From: Candidatus Woesearchaeota archaeon
GTDB taxonomy: Archaea > Nanobdellota > Nanobdellia > Woesearchaeales > UBA10216
Direction of reading: 5' to 3'
Length of the DNA stretch: 46,718 nt
Assembly: GCA_018303115.1 (NCBI GenBank)
Contig: JAGVYT010000043.1
Span: 1 to 46,718, forward strand
The notes below the pieces were generated by a model. The model ran no database searches. It worked only from the letters and a program-made list of their open reading frames with translations, and was not told the origin of the DNA. Within the stretch, counting starts at the first letter, position 1. Each line of letters opens with the position of its first letter. Shown one piece after another: positions 5,344 to 45,124 of this stretch. Made by a program: the position numbers and the translations under genes.

Positions 5344-5790
5344 TTAACCATCCTCAAAATCCATAAGAACAGGGCTTTCTGCGACAACTGCAAGGCGTGG
5401 ATTGGCTGGGCAAAGCCCGGCTAACCCCTCCACCTGCCTTATTCGGGTATTCCTGAACAAAAATTCGCGGAAGTAATTGTCCACCTCAACGCCAAGAAAC
5501 TGCAGCTGAGTTCTTAGTTTACCGTAAAGCTTTCGCCCTTCCCTATCCAAATCTGTTAAAATAATAACCTCTTTATTTGCAGAAGCAACGCTTTCTATCA
5601 TTTTATACAACGGCCTGTCATTCAAGCAGCAGATGTTTTTCACTCCAAACGACTGCAGCGCCTTTTTGTCCTTAACGCCCTCAACTATTACCAACTTGCC
5701 TGTTTTGCTTAGCTTATTTAGAAACCCCTCTACCGCAATTCTATTCTCCATAATCATTAAGGCGATTTCATTATATTTAATAATTTCCAA
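5344..5790 (-). CDS. small Toprim-domain protein (RNase M5-like)
   Basis: Toprim signatures: VIVEGVKDKKAL (conserved Glu) and VIILTDLDREGRKL (DxD). Divergent from the primase gene. Confidence 0.7.
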   Translation of the reverse strand: MEIIKYNEIALMIMENRIAVEGFLNKLSKTGKLVIVEGVKDKKALQSFGVKNICCLNDRPLYKMIESVASANKEVIILTDLDREGRKLYGKLRTQLQFLGVEVDNYFREFLFRNTRIRQVEGLAGLCPANPRLAVVAESPVLMDFEDG

Positions 5791-5796
5791 TGCAAT

Positions 5797-5928
5797 GGCG
5801 TTGTCCTAAAAGGGCTTTCTCGCATGTTTATCGCTTCCTTTTTACTTTCTCCCTCCTTGCTTTGCAGAGGAGGGGGAAAGTAAGCGAGCATTCGGGGCAA
5901 CAGCGGGAACAGGATTTAGGACAGCGCC
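5797..5928. repeat. structured element: 14-bp outer helix enclosing pyrimidine/purine hairpin (family copy 2)
   Basis: GGCGTTGTCCTAAA (5797-5810) pairs with TTTAGGACAGCGCC (5915-5928, one G-U). The inner hairpin is ACTTTCTCCCTCC (5844-5856) / GGAGGGGGAAAGT (5869-5881), extended by TCGCTT / AAGCGA. Confidence 0.55.
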
Positions 5929-6211: not shown

Positions 6212-7578
6212 ATGATTCACCTCAGCAATTCTCTTCAGCATTACAAAAGGCCTGAGATACAGGAAGCAATAGCAGAGCACGCCTCCAACAAGGAGGTTGC
6301 TGCCCGCTTCAACGACCGCTTCGGAAAGAGGCCGGACGTTTTGCAGTATCCGAGTGATGTCCTTGAGATGGCTAGGAAAGGAGCAACTTCCTTCCACTGC
6401 TCAGAAGAGCTTTGGAGCAATCCATTGCAGCTAAAGCCATTGATGAACAGAAAAGAGCTTGACAACTTGCGAGTCGGTTGGGATTTGGTGATTGATATAG
6501 ATTACAAAGATTTTCAATATTCCCAATTAGCTGCGGATCTTATAATAAAGGCGCTACGTCATCATAACATTCATAGCGTTTCAATAAAATTTTCAGGAAA
6601 TAAAGGATTCCATATTGGAATGCCGTTTGAAGCGTTTCCTTCAGAATACAAAGGCATAGATATGAAACTACTTTTTCCAGACGCCACAAAGAGAATTGTC
6701 CTTTATCTTAACGAAAAAATAAAAACCCAACTTACAAAAAAACTTTTAGATGTCGAAGGCGGCAATATTGCTAAAATAGCAGAAAAACTTGGCGTTTCTT
6801 TCAACGTATTGAGCAATGTCGATAAGGTTAAAAAAATAGCAAACTTAATGCACAATTCATTCCTTAATACCGATTTAGGACTTATATCCTCACGACATAT
6901 GTATAGAATGCCTTATTCACTACACGAAAAATCAGGGCTTGTTTCATTACCTATACCTGTTGATGACATAATGGCTTTTGATAAAAATTCGGCAAAACCT
7001 GAGAAATTACAGCTTTCAGATGTAACATTTTTGGATAGGACTAAAGCAGCACCATCGGAAGCCGCTGACTTATTTACGAAAGCTTATGATGCAACGTTTG
7101 AAGTCCCCGTAGCAGATAAGACAGAAAAAGAGTATGAAATCCCCGCAGAGGCAGTGCCTGAAAAGTTCTTCCCGCCATGCATACAAAAGCTGCTGCTTGG
7201 GGTAGAGGACGGGAGGAAAAGAACATTATTCATCCTTACTAATTTCCTCGCAAGCTGCTACAAAAGCTGCTGCTTGGGGTAGAGGACGGGAGGAAAAGAA
7301 CATTATTCATCCTTACTAATTTCCTCGCAAGCTGCGGCTGGGGCTACGAAGCCATGGAAGAAAGACTGAGGGAATGGAACAAGAAAAACCGCGAGCCACT
7401 GCATCAAACATATTTCCTTGGGCAGCTGCGCTACCACAAGCAGCATAAAAAGAAGGTACTGCCGCCAAACTGCCACAACCAGGCATACTACCAGGACTTA
7501 AGAGTTAAATGCGAAGAAAGCATATGCAGCAAATTCAAGAACCCGGTAGGGTATGCGAGAAGGAAGGCCGGCCACTGA
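6212..7578 (+). pseudogene. priS: fused PriS / PriL-CTD-like DNA primase, reading frame broken by a 77-bp tandem duplication (possibly an assembly artefact)
   Basis: ORF 6212-7282 carries PriS motifs: DLVIDIDY, FSGNKGFHIG and SRHMYRMPYSLHEKSGL. ORF 7354-7578 continues a Cys-rich PriL-CTD-like domain (PPC..., LASC, PPNC, VKCEESIC). Deleting one 77-bp copy joins both frames into one 429-codon ORF (...FLASCGWGYEAMEERLREW...). Confidence 0.8.
7182..7335 (+). repeat. exact 77-bp tandem direct duplication (2 copies)
   Basis: 7182-7258 and 7259-7335 are identical base for base (TACAAAAGCTGCTGCTTGGGG...CTCGCAAGCTGC). 77 is not a multiple of 3. Confidence 0.95.
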
Positions 7579-12732: not shown

Positions 12733-12865
12733 GCAATGCGTCTGCTGTCATAGCGGAAGACACAAATAATTATTGACAAAATAGCTGTGTCTTCCTGATA
12801 TAGCGGCTGACAAGCATGTGCAAAAACTAATGTCAGTCGCTATAGGTTTGAAGACTGGTGATTAA
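12733..12865 (+). other. 133-nt structured spacer occupying the slot where archaeal operons usually carry the RNase P protein Rpp29 (rnp1)
   Basis: Hairpin 1 is GGAAGACACA (12755-12764) / TGTGTCTTCC (12786-12795). Hairpin 2 is TATAGCGGCTGACA (12799-12812) / TGTCAGTCGCTATA (12831-12844, one G-U). No ORF is present. Confidence 0.5.
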
Positions 12866-13565: not shown

Positions 13566-13693
13566 GGGGGATATTCAAAATGAAAGCATACTCACTATCG
13601 TTCGTAGCCAAACTCACTGCCGTTCGTAGCTTTCGTCCCGAAAGTTTCATTTTGAAAGCAGGAACAGGGGGATATTCAAAATGAAAGCATACT
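13566..13693 (+). repeat. CGTTCGTAGC-core repeat element flanked by a 27-bp exact duplication of the rpl24 SD/start region
   Basis: GGGGGATATTCAAAATGAAAGCATACT occurs at 13566-13592 and 13667-13693 (period 101). Core copies lie at 13599-13608 and 13621-13630. A CTTTCG-TCC-CGAAAG hairpin lies at 13630-13644. AAAATGAAA (13577-13585) pairs with TTTCATTTT (13645-13653). The micro-ORF 13580-13684 (34 codons) ends in ATGA on the rpl24 start. Confidence 0.8.
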
Positions 13694-14052
13694 TTTCAAA
13701 AAGCTGGAATAGAAGCATACAACCCAGAAAGCAGAGGAAATACCGCTATAATGCCCACTTACATCTAAAACAAAAACTGCTTTCTGCACACTTATCTGCC
13801 GAACTACGAAAGCGTTACGGAAAGAGAAGCATCCCTGTCAAAAAAAATGATACGGTAAAGGTGCTTAAGGGAGGTTTTAAGGGTAAAGTAGGAAAGGTAA
13901 ATTCGGTAAGCATAAAGAAACTCTCTGCTTACATTGACGGTGTCGAATCTTCACGACGCGACGGAACAAAGGTCTTTGTGCCTGTAAAAGCCTCAAACCT
14001 CATGATTATCGAGTTGAACACGGATGACAGCAGGAGAATAAAAAATGAGTAA
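13681..14052 (+). CDS. rpl24: 50S ribosomal protein uL24
   Basis: KOW motif VKKNDTVKVLKGGFKGKVGKV; synteny. Confidence 0.93.
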   Translation: MKAYFSKSWNRSIQPRKQRKYRYNAHLHLKQKLLSAHLSAELRKRYGKRSIPVKKNDTVKVLKGGFKGKVGKVNSVSIKKLSAYIDGVESSRRDGTKVFVPVKASNLMIIELNTDDSRRIKNE

Positions 14053-15459: not shown

Positions 15460-15462
15460 TTA

Positions 15463-15670
15463 ACATGTCAGAATTTTCCACCAATATGCGGTTGAAGGCG
15501 AGTTTTGCTTGCTATAACGATTTTGCATGGTCGGAAATGTCAGAAACGAAGTTTCTGAGCACTCAAAAATCCGAAGGATTTCTGATGATTCTGATCATGC
15601 TCAAAAACCACTTCATGTGGTTAACAAGGAGGACATTCCCCCAGTCTTCGACTGGTGGTTTTTGACATGT
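15463..15670 (+). mobile_element. MITE-like 196-bp hairpin-rich insertion flanked by 6-bp direct repeat ACATGT at the rps8 start codon
   Basis: ACATGT occurs at 15463-15468 and 15665-15670 (period 202). Removing the insert restores the 12-bp palindrome TTAACATGTTAA, with the rps8 ATG 5 nt after the rps14 stop. Internal hairpins: 15540-15558 (8 bp, GAA loop), 15567-15581 (6 bp, GAA loop), 15606-15622 and 15641-15655 (6 bp, TTC loop). Termini are weakly inverted (CAGAA...CCACCA / TGGTGG...TTTTTG). Confidence 0.45.
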
Positions 15671-31222: not shown

Positions 31223-31532
31223 ATTGTAGGGCAAGTGCTTAACTCCAGGTTCAAACCTAGGAAAGTCCACCCACCACGCCCGCAAGGGCAAAAGGCCGCT
31301 GCTGAGAGGCAGGTGCTGAAAAGTGCGCTCCAGCGAAGAAACAACACGGCCCTTAGTCAAGGATGAGATGGCGAATCAGGCAGCAATGGCTGAGAGTTAA
31401 CCCATAGACGTTGCTAAGGGATTCGGTGAGACAGCTGACCGGCCGGTGCAAGTCTTAAGACGCTTAGTCGTATGTTAAGGCAAACCTTCCGAAAGGGGTT
31501 TGACAGAAGGTGGCTTATCTTTGCCCTACAAT
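31223..31532 (+). ncRNA. rnpB: RNase P RNA (archaeal, type A-like, ~310 nt)
   Basis: P1 is ATTGTAGGGCAA (31223-31234) / TTGCCCTACAAT (31521-31532). CR-I is AGGAAAGTCC (31259-31268). CR-V is GACAGAAGGTGGCTTA (31502-31517). P4 AAGTCCACC / GGTGG-CTT carries the conserved bulged U. A T-run follows at 31532-31537. Confidence 0.9.
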
Positions 31533-35599: not shown

Positions 35600-35887
35600 A
35601 TGGAAATCGCTGTTATAGGCAGGGAAGACTTTTGCCTTGGATTCAGACTGGCGGGCATAAAGAAAATAATTGAAACAGAAAAACCACAGGAAGCAATTTC
35701 AGCAGTAAAGCAGGATGCGTCAGTCGGAGTGGTTGTTTTCGATGAAAACCTGCTTGAAAGATTGGATGCTGATGAAAAAGAGGCATTAGAAGACTCGTTA
35801 AAGCCAATATACATAACATTGTCAACCAGAGCGTCAGAGGATACACTTAAAAAGATGATTAGAAAATCCATAGGTGTTGAGCTATGA
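35600..35887 (+). CDS. atpF: A-type ATP synthase subunit F
   Basis: MEIAVIGREDFCLGFRLAGI, the typical subunit F start. Confidence 0.88.
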   Translation: MEIAVIGREDFCLGFRLAGIKKIIETEKPQEAISAVKQDASVGVVVFDENLLERLDADEKEALEDSLKPIYITLSTRASEDTLKKMIRKSIGVEL

Positions 35888-37614
35888 AAACAGGAAAGAT
35901 TTACAGGATTGCAGGGCCGGTTGCTGTTGCAGAACTGGATGCGAGGATGTTTGACATAGCCCTTGTAGGCGATGAAAAGCTTCTTGGGGAAGTCATTCAG
36001 ATTAACGGCAACAGGTGCACTATTCAGATTTACGAAGACACCACAGGCCTAAAGCCCGGAATTCCGGTCGTCAATACAGAAGAGCCGCTTAACATTGAAC
36101 TAGGGCCAGGCTTACTAACTTCCATTTACGACGGAATTCAAAGGCCCCTGCCCCGTCTTAAAGAGCAGATGGGAGACTTCGTCAGGAGAGGAGCGACCGC
36201 TACCGGCATTGAGCGCAGGAAGGAATGGGAATTTAAAGCAACAGCAAAAAAAGGGGACGACATAACAGGCGGTTCTGTCATAGGAGAGGTTATGGAAGGG
36301 CAGATGCTCCATAAAATAATGGCCCCTCCGAATACAAAAGGAAAAATAACTGAAATAAGCTCAGGCTCTTTTACTGTCGATGAAGTCGTTTGCAAACTTG
36401 ACTCCGGGGATAAGATAAAACTGATGCATAAATGGCCTGTCAGAAAGCCAAGACCAACCTCCAAGAAGCTAATTCCAAACATCCCCCTTATTACCGGCCA
36501 GAGAATATTTGATGCCCTGTTCCCCCTTGCAAAAGGAGGAGTAGCAGCAATACCAGGAGGCTTCGGAACCGGCAAAACTGTAGCGCAACAGACGCTTGCA
36601 AAATGGAGCGATGCTGAAGTGATAGTCTACGTAGGCTGCGGGGAGCGCGGCAATGAGATGACTGAAGTCCTTACCGAATTCCCAAAGCTGACAGACCCGC
36701 GCTCAGGAAAGCCCCTGCTTAACAGGACTATTCTCATCGCAAACACATCCAACATGCCAGTGGCTGCTCGTGAGGCCTCAATCTACTGCGGCATGACCAT
36801 GGCAGAGTATTACCGCGACATGGGCTATAATGTGGCTGTGATGGCAGATTCCACCTCCAGATGGGCAGAGGCAATGCGGGAAATCTCTTCGCGCCTGGAA
36901 GAGCTTCCAGGGGAGGAGGGCTACCCGGCATACCTTTCAACAAGGCTCGCAGACTTTTACGAAAGAGCAGGCCGCTACAAAAACCTTAACAATACAGAGG
37001 GCTCCATTTCAGTTATCGGGGCGGTATCCCCTGCAGGGGGGGACTTCTCAGAACCCGTAACACAAGGCACGCTGAGAGTTGTCAAGTGCTTCTGGGCTCT
37101 TGACTCAAAACTTGCCCAAAGAAGGCACTTCCCTGCAATTAACTGGCTTACCTCTTATTCGCTTTACTTAAGCTCTCTTGAGCAGTGGTTCTCTGAGAAC
37201 GTAGCAGAAGACTGGAGAAGCGCTGTTGATAAAATTATGTCTATCCTGCAGGAGGAAGAAAAGCTTCTGGAAATAGTGCAGCTAGTCGGCTCTGACGCAT
37301 TGCCCGAGAGAGAGCAGGTAACCCTTCAAATTGCCAAACTCGCAAGGGAAATGTTCCTTCAGCAGAACGCCTTCCATGCAGTTGACACTTACTCAGAGCC
37401 GAAGAAAACCTATTCGTTTATGAAAACAATCCTGAAATACGGCGATTTGGCTTACAACGCGTTAGGCAGGGGCTCAAAAGTATCTGAGATAATATCAATA
37501 AAGTCAAAAGAAAAACTTTCAGATGTAAAATTTGAAAAGGACTATGAGAAGCTTCTTAATTCTATTGTTAAGGAAATGGAGTCTGAATTCAGCAGGCTGA
37601 AGGTGCAAAAATGA
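35884..37614 (+). CDS. atpA: A-type ATP synthase catalytic subunit A
   Basis: Walker A GGFGTGKT, the non-homologous region typical of A subunits, and MADSTSRWAEAMREIS. No intein. Confidence 0.96.
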   Translation: MKTGKIYRIAGPVAVAELDARMFDIALVGDEKLLGEVIQINGNRCTIQIYEDTTGLKPGIPVVNTEEPLNIELGPGLLTSIYDGIQRPLPRLKEQMGDFVRRGATATGIERRKEWEFKATAKKGDDITGGSVIGEVMEGQMLHKIMAPPNTKGKITEISSGSFTVDEVVCKLDSGDKIKLMHKWPVRKPRPTSKKLIPNIPLITGQRIFDALFPLAKGGVAAIPGGFGTGKTVAQQTLAKWSDAEVIVYVGCGERGNEMTEVLTEFPKLTDPRSGKPLLNRTILIANTSNMPVAAREASIYCGMTMAEYYRDMGYNVAVMADSTSRWAEAMREISSRLEELPGEEGYPAYLSTRLADFYERAGRYKNLNNTEGSISVIGAVSPAGGDFSEPVTQGTLRVVKCFWALDSKLAQRRHFPAINWLTSYSLYLSSLEQWFSENVAEDWRSAVDKIMSILQEEEKLLEIVQLVGSDALPEREQVTLQIAKLAREMFLQQNAFHAVDTYSEPKKTYSFMKTILKYGDLAYNALGRGSKVSEIISIKSKEKLSDVKFEKDYEKLLNSIVKEMESEFSRLKVQK

Positions 37615-37789
37615 AAGCATGCTCACTGGCGTTCGTAGCCAAACTCACTGCCGTTCGTAGCTTTCGTTCCGAAAGCAGACTCGCTGGCGTTCGTAGCTTT
37701 CGTTCCGAAAGTTTCATTTTTGGGTGTTCAAAATGAAAGCATGCTCACTGGCGTTCGTAGCTTTCATTTTGAGGTGTTCAAAATGAAAG
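37602..37789 (+). repeat. two tandem modules of the CGTTCGTAGC-core repeat element inserted at the atpA-stop/atpB-start junction
   Basis: The initiation-region motif GGTG(C/TTC)AAAATGAAAG occurs three times (37602-37617, 37723-37739, 37773-37789). Core copies lie at 37630-39, 37652-61, 37688-97 and 37752-61. GCTTTCG-TTC-CGAAAGC hairpins lie at 37660-37676 and 37696-37712. A perfect 11-bp stem joins AAAATGAAAGC (37730-40) and GCTTTCATTTT (37760-70). Micro-ORFs 37611-37736 and 37733-37786 are chained by ATGA overlaps. Confidence 0.8.
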
Positions 37790-39150
37790 AGTACAAAACC
37801 ATAAGCAGGGTTGCAGGGCCCCTTGTTTTTGTAAAGAAAACAGAGCCTGTTTCATATGCAGACATGGTAAAGGTGCTTCTCCCAAACGGGGAGGAAAAAA
37901 ACGCGCAGGTTCTGGACACTAGCGACGACCTTGTTGTAGTCCAGGTTTTCGAAGGCACTTCCGGAATAGACCTCAACACAAGGGTCAAGTTTCTCAACCA
38001 GCCGATGAGGCTCCATGTATCAGAGGAAATTCTTGGCAGAATCCTTTCAGGCTCCGGGAAGCCCATAGACGGCGGCCCTGAGATGGTTGCCGACAAGATA
38101 ATGGACATAGCCGGAGCAGCGATAAACCCCTACTCAAGAAGCAACCCCGAGGACTTCATACAAACAGGCATCTCAACCATAGATGCAATGAACACGTTAG
38201 TCAGAGGCCAAAAACTGCCTATTTTTTCAGCTTCCGGCCTTCCCCACAACGAAATCGCATTGCAAATTTCAAGGCAGGCAAAGGTAATCGGAAAGGAGAC
38301 AAACTTTGCGATTGTCTTCGCTGCCATGGGCATAACAAATGAAGAAGCCCAGCGCTTCATACAGGACTTTGAGCAAACAGGGGCTTTAGAGCGCTCTGCA
38401 GTTTTCCTCAACCTCGCAAGCGACCCTGCAGTTGAAAGGCTTCTGACCCCACAGCTGGCGTTAACTGCTGCAGAATACCTGGCATTTGAAAAAGACATGC
38501 ACGTTCTTGTTATCCTGACTGACATGACAAATTACTGCGAAAGCCTGCGGGAGATAGGAAGCGCCCGTGAAGAGATTCCTGGAAGAAGAGGGTATCCTGG
38601 ATACATGTACACCACGCTGGCAAACATATACGAGCGTGCAGGCATGATTAAAGGCAAAAAGGGCTCAATAACCCAGCTTCCAATACTGACAATGATTGGC
38701 GACGACATAACACACCCAATCCCGGATTTGACAGGCTACATTACAGAAGGCCAGATTGTTCTAAGCAGGGAGCTTCACCAGCGCAACATATACCCCCCAA
38801 TTGACGTTCTGCCTTCCCTTTCAAGGCTTATGAACCTAGGAATCGGCTCTGACAAAACCAGGGAAGACCACAAGCAAGTTTCTGACCAGCTCTACGCATT
38901 TTACGCTGAAGGGAGGGACTTGCGCGGCTTGGTTGCCATAGTCGGAGAAGAGTCCCTGTCCGAGCGTGACCGCAGGCTTCTGAAATTCGCTGCCGAGTTT
39001 GAAAGCAAATTTGTCAAGCAAGGCAAAAACGAGGACAGGGGCATCTCAGGCACCCTGGACACCGGGTGGAAACTGCTCTCTGAAATCCCTGAAAGCGAGC
39101 TTTCAAGGGTAAGCCCTGAAATGAGGCGCAAGTATTATGGCAAACGTTAA
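37783..39150 (+). CDS. atpB: A-type ATP synthase subunit B
   Basis: Track ORF 37720-39150 trimmed to ATG 37783 ([17 protein letters not shown], the canonical N-terminus). An in-frame ATG at 37741 inside the repeat is an alternative. Confidence 0.95.
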
Positions 39151-45053: not shown

Positions 45054-45124
45054 GCGGCAGTGATCTAACGGCATGATTCGAGCTTCCCAAGCTTGCTGTC
45101 CGGGTCCAATTCCCGGCTGCCGCA
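45054..45124 (+). tRNA. tRNA-Gly (anticodon CCC), no intron, CCA not encoded
   Basis: Folded by hand. Acceptor GCGGCAG/CTGCCGC plus discriminator A. Anticodon stem CGAGC/GCTTG with loop TTCCCAA. T stem CCGGG/CCCGG. The D stem is weak (ATC/GAT plus a T-T mismatch). The T loop reads TCCAATT rather than TTCRAAT. Confidence 0.75.

Follow-up and report, generated by a model that had tools for sequence, protein, structure and literature searches.

Contig JAGVYT010000043.1, whose positions 1–46,718 are referred to here as the window, carries 172 inserted nt between atpA and atpB, the genes for subunits A and B of an A/V-type ATPase. These nucleotides are probably copies of a very small, non-autonomous, selfish mobile element of DPANN (Woesearchaeota-like) archaea that is related to tRNA introns and is tolerated within operons only when termination-reinitiation coupling between neighboring genes is kept. 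The evidence for this reading comes from junction alleles that differ by whole repeat units, from occupied and empty sites within one species, from the recurrence of one head sequence in unrelated contexts, and from small open reading frames (micro-ORFs) that cross the insertions and end at the true start codons. The nearest named homologues of the AtpB and L24 proteins carry the label Candidatus Woesearchaeota, and the source organism is taken from its sequence to be a Woesearchaeota-like DPANN archaeon. Labels beginning with L (L002, L126, L150 and so on) denote other contigs or loci that were compared with the window.

Element anatomy and the atpA/atpB insertion

The unit of the element consists of a conserved, single-stranded head of 22 nt, CAnn-CTCACTGnCGTTCGTAGC, and, 3' of it, a hairpin that varies in sequence; the closing pair of that hairpin is formed by the final C of the head and the final G of the element. 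This architecture is common to ~25 distinct archaeal copies. The element always stands immediately 3' of a sequence (X1) that resembles the 3' arm of its own hairpin (X2), so that the 5' arm (X') can pair with either. In the subfamily present in the window, the 3' arm comprises a Shine-Dalgarno (SD) sequence, a spacer and (TTC)AAAATGAAAG; copies therefore follow ATGAAAG starts and regenerate both the start codon and the SD. The features of the atpA/atpB junction are as follows.

35884–37614, + strand: atpA, A/V-type ATPase subunit A, with its stop TGA at 37612–37614 (ORF list; Pfam domains of the identical gene in L126).
37606–37617, + strand: X1, the native junction CAAAAATGAAAG, holding the atpA stop and the original start, which is now the start of micro-ORF1; the same sequence abuts atpB in L150 and L151.
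37611–37736, + strand: micro-ORF1, 41 codons, sharing an ATGA with atpA upstream and another with micro-ORF2 downstream (ORF reading).
37618–37639, + strand: head A (CATG plus core), without a hairpin of its own, opening a composite module of 122 nt (repeat search, allele comparison).
37640–37675, + strand: 36-nt unit B, head CAAA plus core and the hairpin TTTCGTTCCGAAAG (−8.2 kcal/mol, z −6.4).
37676–37711, + strand: 36-nt unit C, variable in copy number, with one extra in L126 (tandem-repeat search, allele comparison).
37712–37722, + strand: X' of module 1 (TTTCATTTTTG), complementary to X1 (inverted-repeat search).
37728–37739, + strand: TCAAAATGAAAG, which serves both as X2 of module 1 and as X1 of module 2; micro-ORF1 stops and micro-ORF2 starts within it, and an SD-like GGGTG precedes it.
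37733–37786, + strand: micro-ORF2, 17 codons, its TGA overlapping the atpB ATG (ORF reading).
37740–37761, + strand: head D (CATG plus core) of a simple module of 50 nt, the sole module in allele L002.
37760–37772, + strand: X' of module 2 (GCTTTCATTTTGA), which pairs with 37728–37740 or with 37778–37789 (inverted repeats).
37771–37789, + strand: 3' end of the element, with SD GAGGTG, spacer and regenerated atpB start ATGAAAG, like the tails in L124, L108, L044, L009 and L149.
37783–39150, + strand: atpB, subunit B, 455 aa (ORF list, homologues).

A first-pass annotation, made from the letters of the window alone, had described a chain of ATGA-coupled micro-ORFs running through repeated modules at this junction, and all that it described proved to be present at the positions given. 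Three successive ATGA overlaps (37611–37614, 37733–37736 and 37783–37786) connect atpA, the ORFs of 41 and 17 codons, and atpB. Four copies of the 18-nt core CTCRCTGSCGTTCGTAGC begin at 37622, 37644, 37680 and 37744, with none found in 100 shuffles, and both GCTTTCGTTCCGAAAG hairpins are present, as is a tandem unit of 36 nt at 37643–37711. The sequence AAAATGAAAG occurs in the three copies that had been reported (37608, 37730 and 37780). The inverted repeats at the micro-ORF2 start, originally given as an 11-bp stem, proved slightly longer (13 of 13 bp, 37728–37740 with 37760–37772), and further perfect inverted repeats join 37761–37772 with 37778–37789 (12 of 12 bp) and 37606–37616 with 37712–37722 (11 of 11 bp).

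An additional ATG at 37741, within the module 2 head (gCATGctc), is open and in frame with atpB through 37785, and gene callers consequently add 14 aa to AtpB in six contigs (e.g. P0003). A ribosome that ended micro-ORF1 at 37734–37736 could in principle restart at this ATG.

Contigs from other samples that encode an identical AtpB carry inserts of 50 nt (L002), 172 nt (L127, as in the window) and 208 nt at the junction, the last on a 90-kb contig (L126) with one additional 36-nt unit; L001 has a scaffold N-gap exactly at this junction. Since three versions occur in separate assemblies, the block is no artefact of a single assembly and changes by whole units. L002, L126 and L127 are assemblies at k=141, where a 141-mer spans the 50-nt allele and not the whole 172- or 208-nt array. 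Together with empty alleles at rpl14/rpl24 and a 122-nt composite at a third locus (both described below), these alleles bear out the first-pass proposal that a small non-autonomous element had inserted or expanded here. The within-species polymorphisms are compatible with either insertion or deletion as the direction of change.

The same annotation had proposed a direct atpA/atpB ATGA overlap as the ancestral state. Exactly such a junction, AAGGTTAAAAAATGAAAGAGTAT, is found in L150 (AtpB 94% identical), and direct overlaps are also present in L128–130 (92%), L151 (91%) and L132 (89%). Own copies of the element stand at the atpA/atpB junction of L152 (AtpB 91%), L108 and L044, and this patchy presence among relatives implies repeated gain and/or loss.

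Spacers of 13 nt separate atpA from atpB in L131 (6816–6828, GAGGTTTTCCAAA) and in L133/134 (L133 9988–10000, GAAAGTGTTCGAA) and resemble the SD-spacer 3' tail of the element. Such spacers may be what lost copies left behind, an overlap having thereby been turned into an SD-led start. The L132 contig (7086–10004) encodes an atpA product of 972 aa with an intein (Pfam Intein_splicing), a further selfish element in an atp operon.

Other copies of the element, including those in tRNA and rRNA genes

A second insertion, overlooked in the first-pass annotation, lies between rpl14 and rpl24 of the window (13566–13692), with cores at 13591 and 13613. It comprises 101 nt, made up of two heads and one 36-nt unit, and stands between two identical 26-nt copies of the rpl24 initiation region.

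13566–13591, + strand: upstream copy of the duplicated 26-nt initiation region, GGGGGATATTCAAAATGAAAGCATAC, present only once in the empty alleles L138 and L144.
13580–13684, + strand: micro-ORF, 34 codons, its TGA overlapping the rpl24 ATG at 13681 (ATGA 13681–13684; ORF reading).
13587–13666, + strand: body of the insertion, with a head (13587–13608), a 36-nt unit (13609–13644), X' TTTCATTTTGAA (13645–13656) and a spacer (13657–13666).
13667–13692, + strand: downstream copy of the 26-nt duplication, with the true SD and start of rpl24 (coding sequence 13681–14052).

Within the same species, this site is empty in L138 and L144, each with a single 26-mer, and occupied in at least eight other contigs. 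A copy with a single module is found at the rpl14/rpl24 junction of the more distant L149 (L24 82% identical), and the marine relative represented by L145–148 has a direct TAATG overlap there. At a third locus, on a Joint Genome Institute (JGI) contig (L124), a 122-nt composite equal to window positions 37618–37739 lies between two other small genes and has ATGA at both ends. Beyond these two loci in the window and the third in L124, copies were found in ~20 other DPANN-type contigs. Their contexts are the T-loops of tRNA genes (between positions 59 and 60), a 16S rRNA gene, tandem arrays, and eight other gene starts.

Comparison of these copies separates what is conserved from what is local. 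The identity between X1 and X2 ranges from ~6 nt (L089) through 7–10 nt (atp, L111) up to 26 nt (rpl); where the two differ, X' mostly matches X2 (L009, L070 and the tRNA copies), and X' of module 1 in the window matches X1. The inverted repeats X1/X' and X'/X2 differ between copies and match the local flank, and the conserved part is the 5' head only. The head has no inverted copy. Given that the preferred target resembles the 3' end of the element, an existing copy is itself a target, and such self-targeting would explain the 36-nt tandem units of the window and the arrays with a period of ~38–39 nt in L091 and L116. The junction of 3' end and head, TGAAAG|CAnn, is identical to that expected of a circularized copy of the tRNA type.

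The arrays of L091 (~5740–5910) and L116 (~100–340) belong to one metagenome-assembled genome (MAG; CAZBGG01), consist of at least four and at least seven head-plus-hairpin units, respectively, lie in non-coding DNA, and have hairpins with the base CTTA...TAAG. In L111 (minus strand, ~6990–7060), a copy directly follows the 3' end of a tRNA gene that lies on the opposite strand, and 10 nt of the tRNA acceptor 3' strand (CCTAGTGCCC) are duplicated; insertion is therefore not limited to the sense orientation of the neighboring gene. The label "uncultured Methanosarcinales archaeon" is attached to L007, L009, L108, L110, L152 and other MAG records, and it looks unreliable because the nearest named homologues are from Woesearchaeota. 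The AtpB of L152, from the same MAG as L110 and likewise labelled Methanosarcinales, is 91% identical to that of the window.

The copies in tRNA and 16S rRNA genes have the anatomy of bulge-helix-bulge (BHB)-type introns. In seven contigs, labelled Woesearchaeota, Nanoarchaeota/Nanoarchaeia or (L007) Methanosarcinales, a head plus hairpin of 43–46 nt splits the tRNA T-loop between positions 59 and 60. After in-silico deletion of the element, ARAGORN reported tRNA-Thr(cgt), three tRNA-Glu(ttc) and tRNA-Val(gac) with canonical TTCAAAT or TTCGAAT loops, and it reported none of them with the element present. The flanks comprise the T-stem, a 4-bp helix (TTCR with YGAA) and 3-nt bulges (AA|C and AG|T), and CTGnCGTT of the head pairs with a downstream AACGn'CAG. 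Across the tRNA-type copies, 99% of cells in this BHB-type pairing are paired, against 23–52% when the partner is slid, and compensatory changes affect both the central helix (A-U to G-C) and the variable position n (A-U, U-A, G-C).

The 16S rRNA gene of L086 (Nanoarchaeota, minus strand, locus 292–330) contains a precise insertion of 39 nt, CACG-CTCACTAACGTTCG...TTTACAG, that is not present in L019. It lies in the loop region of helix 23 and has the geometry GTAA AA|C ... TTAC AG|T. Splicing of the tRNA and 16S copies is probable, since without it the host RNAs would not function. A second insertion in the L086 16S gene seems to begin further downstream, after GGATTAGATA. An 11-nt identity between DPANN 16S rRNA (AAAGCGTTCGTAGCCGG, L019 7236 / L086 7550) and the element core (GCGTTCGTAGC) was judged a coincidence. 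With regard to annotation, gene callers both mis-start atpB in the contigs described above and miss the tRNAs that carry T-loop copies.

How the element moves can be suggested only as a guess: it might insert beside a sequence that pairs with X' and subsequently be gained or lost by recombination between the direct repeats. Candidate routes would be the insertion, guided by pairing, of a form that is single-stranded or derived from RNA, or template switching at microhomologies. A tentative proposal, which is possible though doubtful, is that this family of ~36–50 nt leads a double life, as a spliced BHB intron in tRNA and rRNA genes and as a start-rebuilding, relay-crossed insert in operons, with targets chosen by X' pairing and with movement via an excised, possibly circular, intron RNA or single-stranded DNA. 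Pairing between X' and target would also explain the self-targeting tandem arrays. If it were true, this double life would be a new mode of transposition and of damage limitation, and would provide a handle on the spread of archaeal introns.

Bridging micro-ORFs and competing explanations

The first-pass annotation had also expected that only frame-compatible versions of the element would be tolerated. The gene-start loci that were read comprised the atp and rpl loci of the window, L002, L126, L124, L108, L044, L009, L038/L125, L079 and L149, with L002 and L126 as further alleles of the atp locus in the window; some comparison stretches are N-masked, and the L152 copy, whose upstream part is masked, was left out of the frame test. 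At 10 of the 10 readable loci, a micro-ORF reaches the true start, ending on it or 1 nt short of it, in agreement with that expectation. The ORF that opens at the displaced upstream start ends with a TGA overlapping the real ATG at nine loci and with a TAA 1 nt before it at L038, and at most sites the upstream start itself overlaps the stop of the preceding gene (ATGA). Start-to-start distances of 50, 65, 65, 68, 68, 101, 122, 122 and 158 nt are all 2 mod 3, with spacers that are unrelated in sequence. L044 has two modules of 67 nt (1 mod 3 each), and one 45-codon ORF crosses both and lands on ATGA; in L038 (67 nt), a change of TTCAAAATG to TTAAAATG (TTC to TTA) creates the stop. Gain or loss of 36-nt units, whose length is divisible by 3, leaves the frame unchanged. 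Among ~8 independent spacer lineages, six are directly in phase (binomial P ~0.02) and all eight end at the start (P ~1e-4 to 1e-3), statistics that are suggestive, not overwhelming.

Under the favored reading of a tolerated mobile element, the displaced original start, which overlaps the atpA stop, would open a micro-ORF through the element to a TGA at the next ATG, and ribosomes would be relayed by termination and reinitiation from atpA to micro-ORF1, micro-ORF2 and atpB. Such a relay would be needed because coupling breaks down once genes are ~20 nt apart, and genes for subunits of heteromeric complexes are particularly rich in overlaps (PMC10666635; PMC6728339). Selection would remove copies in the wrong phase, and the survivors in essential, stoichiometric operons would be 2 mod 3 or have an equivalent solution. 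The element itself would be selfish and near neutral, with no conserved regulatory role. It follows as a prediction that the chain of ATGA overlaps should transmit coupling across 170–200 nt.

An unrelated insertion of 207 nt between rps14 and rps8 (15460–15666), in the ribosomal operon that also holds the rpl insertion, independently supports the bridging logic. Relatives L145 and L149 have 5 nt at this position. Inverted repeats (TTAACATGTCAGAA / TTTTGACATGTTAA) form its termini, its ACATGT start context is duplicated, and it contains numerous internal hairpins; it is crossed by a 66-codon ORF (15465–15665) that runs from 5 nt past the rps14 stop to 1 nt before the rps8 ATG. Elsewhere in the window, the spacer between SUI1 and rps17 (12733–12865) measures 133 nt, compared with 1 nt in L145, and contains two strong hairpins, at 12755–12795 and 12799–12844, along with a direct repeat (CTGTCATAGCGGAAGACA / CTGATATAGCGGCTGACA). 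No bridging ORF spans it, and it could be another insert or a small RNA.

Local hairpins of the atp insertion are more stable than those of shuffled sequences (z about −5 to −6), and the atp region as a whole folds only ~2 standard deviations better than shuffles. In module 2, X':X2 (37761–37772 with 37778–37789, loop GGUGU) has −12.8 kcal/mol (z −5.1) and buries the atpB AUG and part of the SD; a competing helix of −19.2 kcal/mol around the head (37727–37740 with 37760–37773) buries the micro-ORF2 AUG. A ribosome crossing X' within micro-ORF2 would be expected to melt the 12-bp hairpin and so free the atpB AUG at the place where it terminates. In the long alleles only, the hairpin of the last 36-nt unit is followed by TCATTTTTGG (37695–37722), which gives a terminator-like hairpin plus T5 within the atp operon. 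The predicted module 1 hairpin with its TTTTT might cause some transcription termination.

These structures are what would recommend a selected cis-regulatory attenuator, translational or transcriptional, that tunes atpB (and atpD) relative to atpA: the two strong helices are mutually exclusive and hide alternately the micro-ORF2 and atpB starts, a terminator-like element is at hand, and elements stand at the atpA/atpB junction in four lineages (window, L108, L044, L152). An attenuator that sets subunit stoichiometry had been offered in the first-pass annotation as an alternative, and it found no support, in that a single species includes assemblies with and without the element and with different numbers of copies. 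The alleles of 50, 172 and 208 nt and the rpl site that is either empty or occupied are not what a selected device would lead one to expect; moreover, the closest relatives are entirely without the element, subunits A and B are needed 3:3 and their tight ATGA coupling is ancestral, and the element also occurs in unrelated contexts (tRNA, rRNA and other genes). The attenuator is therefore regarded as unlikely.

A different route to tolerance would be the removal of a BHB-type intron from the atp and rpl mRNAs by the tRNA splicing endonuclease and RtcB ligase, which would restore the ATGA and make the micro-ORFs irrelevant. The atp and rpl copies do share the 22-nt head and the ...TGAAAG 3' end with the tRNA 59/60 and 16S copies that form the BHB-type motif with compensatory changes, removal of 37618–37789 gives exactly the junction of the relatives, and splicing endonucleases of relaxed specificity are found in some DPANN lineages (PMC3239211, PMC5829648). 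An exhaustive scan of geometries with a 4-bp helix and 3-nt bulges, however, found none by which either the atp or the rpl insert would be cut out at plausible boundaries. Both boundaries are preceded by the same 4 nt (TGAA/TGAA), which are not complementary, the helices X1:X' and X':X2 are perfect and bulge-free, and the strict frame rule across copies would be needless if the insert were spliced out. With no BHB at atp or rpl, the insert most probably stays in the mRNA, and this explanation is considered rather improbable. One BHB candidate that would restore the ATGA (5' site after 37612, 3' site after 37772) was rejected, as it rests on an AAAA/UUUU helix and four G-U pairs.

The insertions could also have arisen without any mobile element, by local slippage or template switching (a duplication, inverted copy and duplication of the initiation region) followed by tandem expansion. 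The arrangement X - X'(inverted) - X does resemble the products of template switching, and alleles that differ by whole units with flanking direct repeats of 26–36 nt are as slippage or unequal recombination would yield. This explanation is quite improbable given that two unrelated window loci (13587 and 37618), another gene pair in L124, and ~20 other DPANN-type contigs with quite different flanks share an identical 22-nt head; local slippage is unable to make one head sequence repeatedly.

It is very improbable that the micro-ORFs are genuine small-protein genes and the repeats their coding sequence. Their start context is good, the frame used is open in all copies and a peptide MKAxSLxFVAFIL is shared, but a search of 5.8 billion sequences with the 41-aa micro-ORF protein returned no homologue, the nucleotide head is conserved equally in the untranslatable tRNA and rRNA copies, and the peptides are fully divergent past the head and range from 17 to 53 codons within one species. 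An assembly artefact is hardly credible: the N-gap in L001 lies exactly at the block and L002 is shorter, but two independent long contigs (the window and L127) agree exactly in the 172-nt form, the 208-nt form is carried by the 90-kb L126, and the 122-nt composite recurs at the L124 locus.

Several points weigh against a mobile element tolerated through coupled translation. Translation of the micro-ORFs and reinitiation between them are deduced from the reading frames. The atpB gene retains its own SD, so de novo initiation may suffice, and the frame rule could reflect mere avoidance of out-of-frame read-through. The whole rpl region folds no better than shuffles (z −0.17). The gene-start sample is small, with readable upstream ends at 10 loci that represent ~8 independent lineages, and it was partly collected with a pattern that demands GAAAGCA upstream of the head. 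As to mobility, only two loci are present in ~47 kb of the source genome, the length of the flanking direct repeat varies (~6–26 nt) in a way that no known transposition chemistry explains, neither a transposase nor a reverse transcriptase nor another mobilizing gene was found near any copy, and some of the within-species polymorphism may be deletion between direct repeats, not new insertion.

Comparison with known systems

The first-pass annotation did not recognize the repeat as a described class, which agrees with the searches made here. With the Rfam gathering threshold applied to the whole window, no match to the element was obtained, and a lenient scan of 37540–37850 gave only microRNA-type matches at chance level, far below threshold. 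BLAST against phage and plasmid collections left the element unmatched. In the literature searched (on the motif, BHB introns in mRNA, DPANN introns and miniature inverted-repeat transposable elements (MITEs) at start codons), the element was undescribed, though absence there is no proof of novelty; nor was any description found there of a mobile insert that rebuilds a start site and is crossed by ATGA-chained micro-ORFs. The sole Rfam matches in the window were an archaeal RNase P RNA (130 bits; 31225–31530) and one intron-less tRNA (45054–45124), and the complementarity of the head to other window RNAs, including these two, was limited to chance 9-mers.

Among sequence collections, a genome scan with CTCRCTGNCGTTCGTAGC returned 119 matches, a pattern too loose to be specific: they are mostly single chance matches in GC-rich bacteria (CTCGCTG, without the CAnn prefix), and only ~23 are informative archaeal loci. 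A metagenome scan with GAAAGCANNCTCRCTGNCGTTCGTAGC returned two contigs only, and a viral scan returned two matches, both probably due to chance, one of them within the anticodon arm of a tRNA-Arg. L013 (~6550–6870, labelled Paenibacillus) contains several tandem head-like motifs (AAGCTCACTGGCGTTCGTTAGC and variants); either the contig is mis-binned or this is a bacterial repeat with no relation to the element. In L049, L065, L075 and L098 (Horticoccus/Opitutaceae), a palindromic repeat resembling repetitive extragenic palindromes (REPs), CCACTCGCTGGCGTTCGTAGCCAC, occurs with an inverted partner, and its resemblance to the core is probably coincidental.

Other identities were rejected: the element is without C or D boxes (C/D-box small RNA) and without tandem G-A (kink-turn), its units are too short for a CRISPR-like array, integron attC and Xer sites gave no match, and GCGTTCGTAGCTT is only vaguely like the 5' end of a tRNA (tRNA-derived short interspersed element).

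Small repeats such as Correia/NEMIS, ERIC, BOX and REP/BIME are tens of nt long, non-autonomous, hairpin-forming, dispersed, variable between strains and co-transcribed with genes. The element shares with these repeats and with MITEs that it is short, non-autonomous, hairpin-forming, dispersed in many copies and polymorphic. It differs from a MITE in lacking conserved terminal inverted repeats and a target duplication of fixed length (6–26 nt here). REP/BIME sequences are conserved imperfect palindromes that follow a GTAG and occur in hundreds of copies in genomes with a RAYT transposase gene; in the present element, GTAG(C) precedes the hairpin, and the sequence of the palindrome is not conserved. 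Rickettsia palindromic elements insert in frame into ORFs and are tolerated by staying in frame. The same logic of tolerance applies here, but those elements are fused into proteins, whereas the present one is crossed by separate, coupled micro-ORFs; unlike both MITEs and Rickettsia palindromic elements, it regenerates an SD and start codon and is conserved at one end (the head) only.

IS200/IS605-derived elements have hairpins at both ends, use a Y1 transposase, and insert 3' of a target of 4–5 nt with no duplication. Likeness to their "peel and paste" mode and to palindrome-associated transposable elements (PATEs) is seen in the insertion just 3' of a short target, the subterminal hairpin and the precise loss that restores the target, and also in the equivalence of left flank and right end, both readable by an internal complementary "guide". 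In contrast to IS200/IS605, the conserved end is without a hairpin, the hairpin sequence is variable, the complementarity extends over 9–13 nt instead of 4–5 nt, and TnpA was not found (no locus gene table contained a tnpA). Inteins and IStrons likewise invade a conserved essential site and neutralize the damage after the DNA level, although neutralization here would be by ribosome hand-over and not by protein or RNA splicing. Replacing the start and keeping phase would thus be a new survival route for a parasite in an essential operon.

A relay of two (elsewhere one) non-functional micro-ORFs on a mobile insert has, to our knowledge, not been described. The three successive −4 overlaps in a gene pair for a heteromeric complex are otherwise like known ATGA/TGATG coupling (Huber et al. 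2019, PMC6728339; 2023, PMC10666635), and the relatives have a single canonical overlap. For further tracing of copies, the 22-nt head provides a sequence handle, and the occupied and empty alleles are natural before-and-after pairs.

The closest comparison for the tRNA and rRNA members is with archaeal introns. In the account of Fujishima et al. (2010) given in PMC4090602, near-identical short BHB introns in different Thermoproteales tRNA genes imply transposition, by a mechanism that is left unexplained. As portrayed there, those introns resemble the present family in being short (~40–50 nt), non-coding inserts in different tRNA genes, and the tRNA 59/60 and 16S members described here are of BHB type. 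The present family differs from that portrayal in its DPANN lineage, in its conserved 22-mer head, and in its occurrence also at protein-gene starts and in tandem arrays without a BHB; its start-codon copies seem to be handled by translation, not by splicing. If confirmed, the family would tie the unexplained mobility of protein-spliced archaeal introns to small dispersed repeats of the MITE type.

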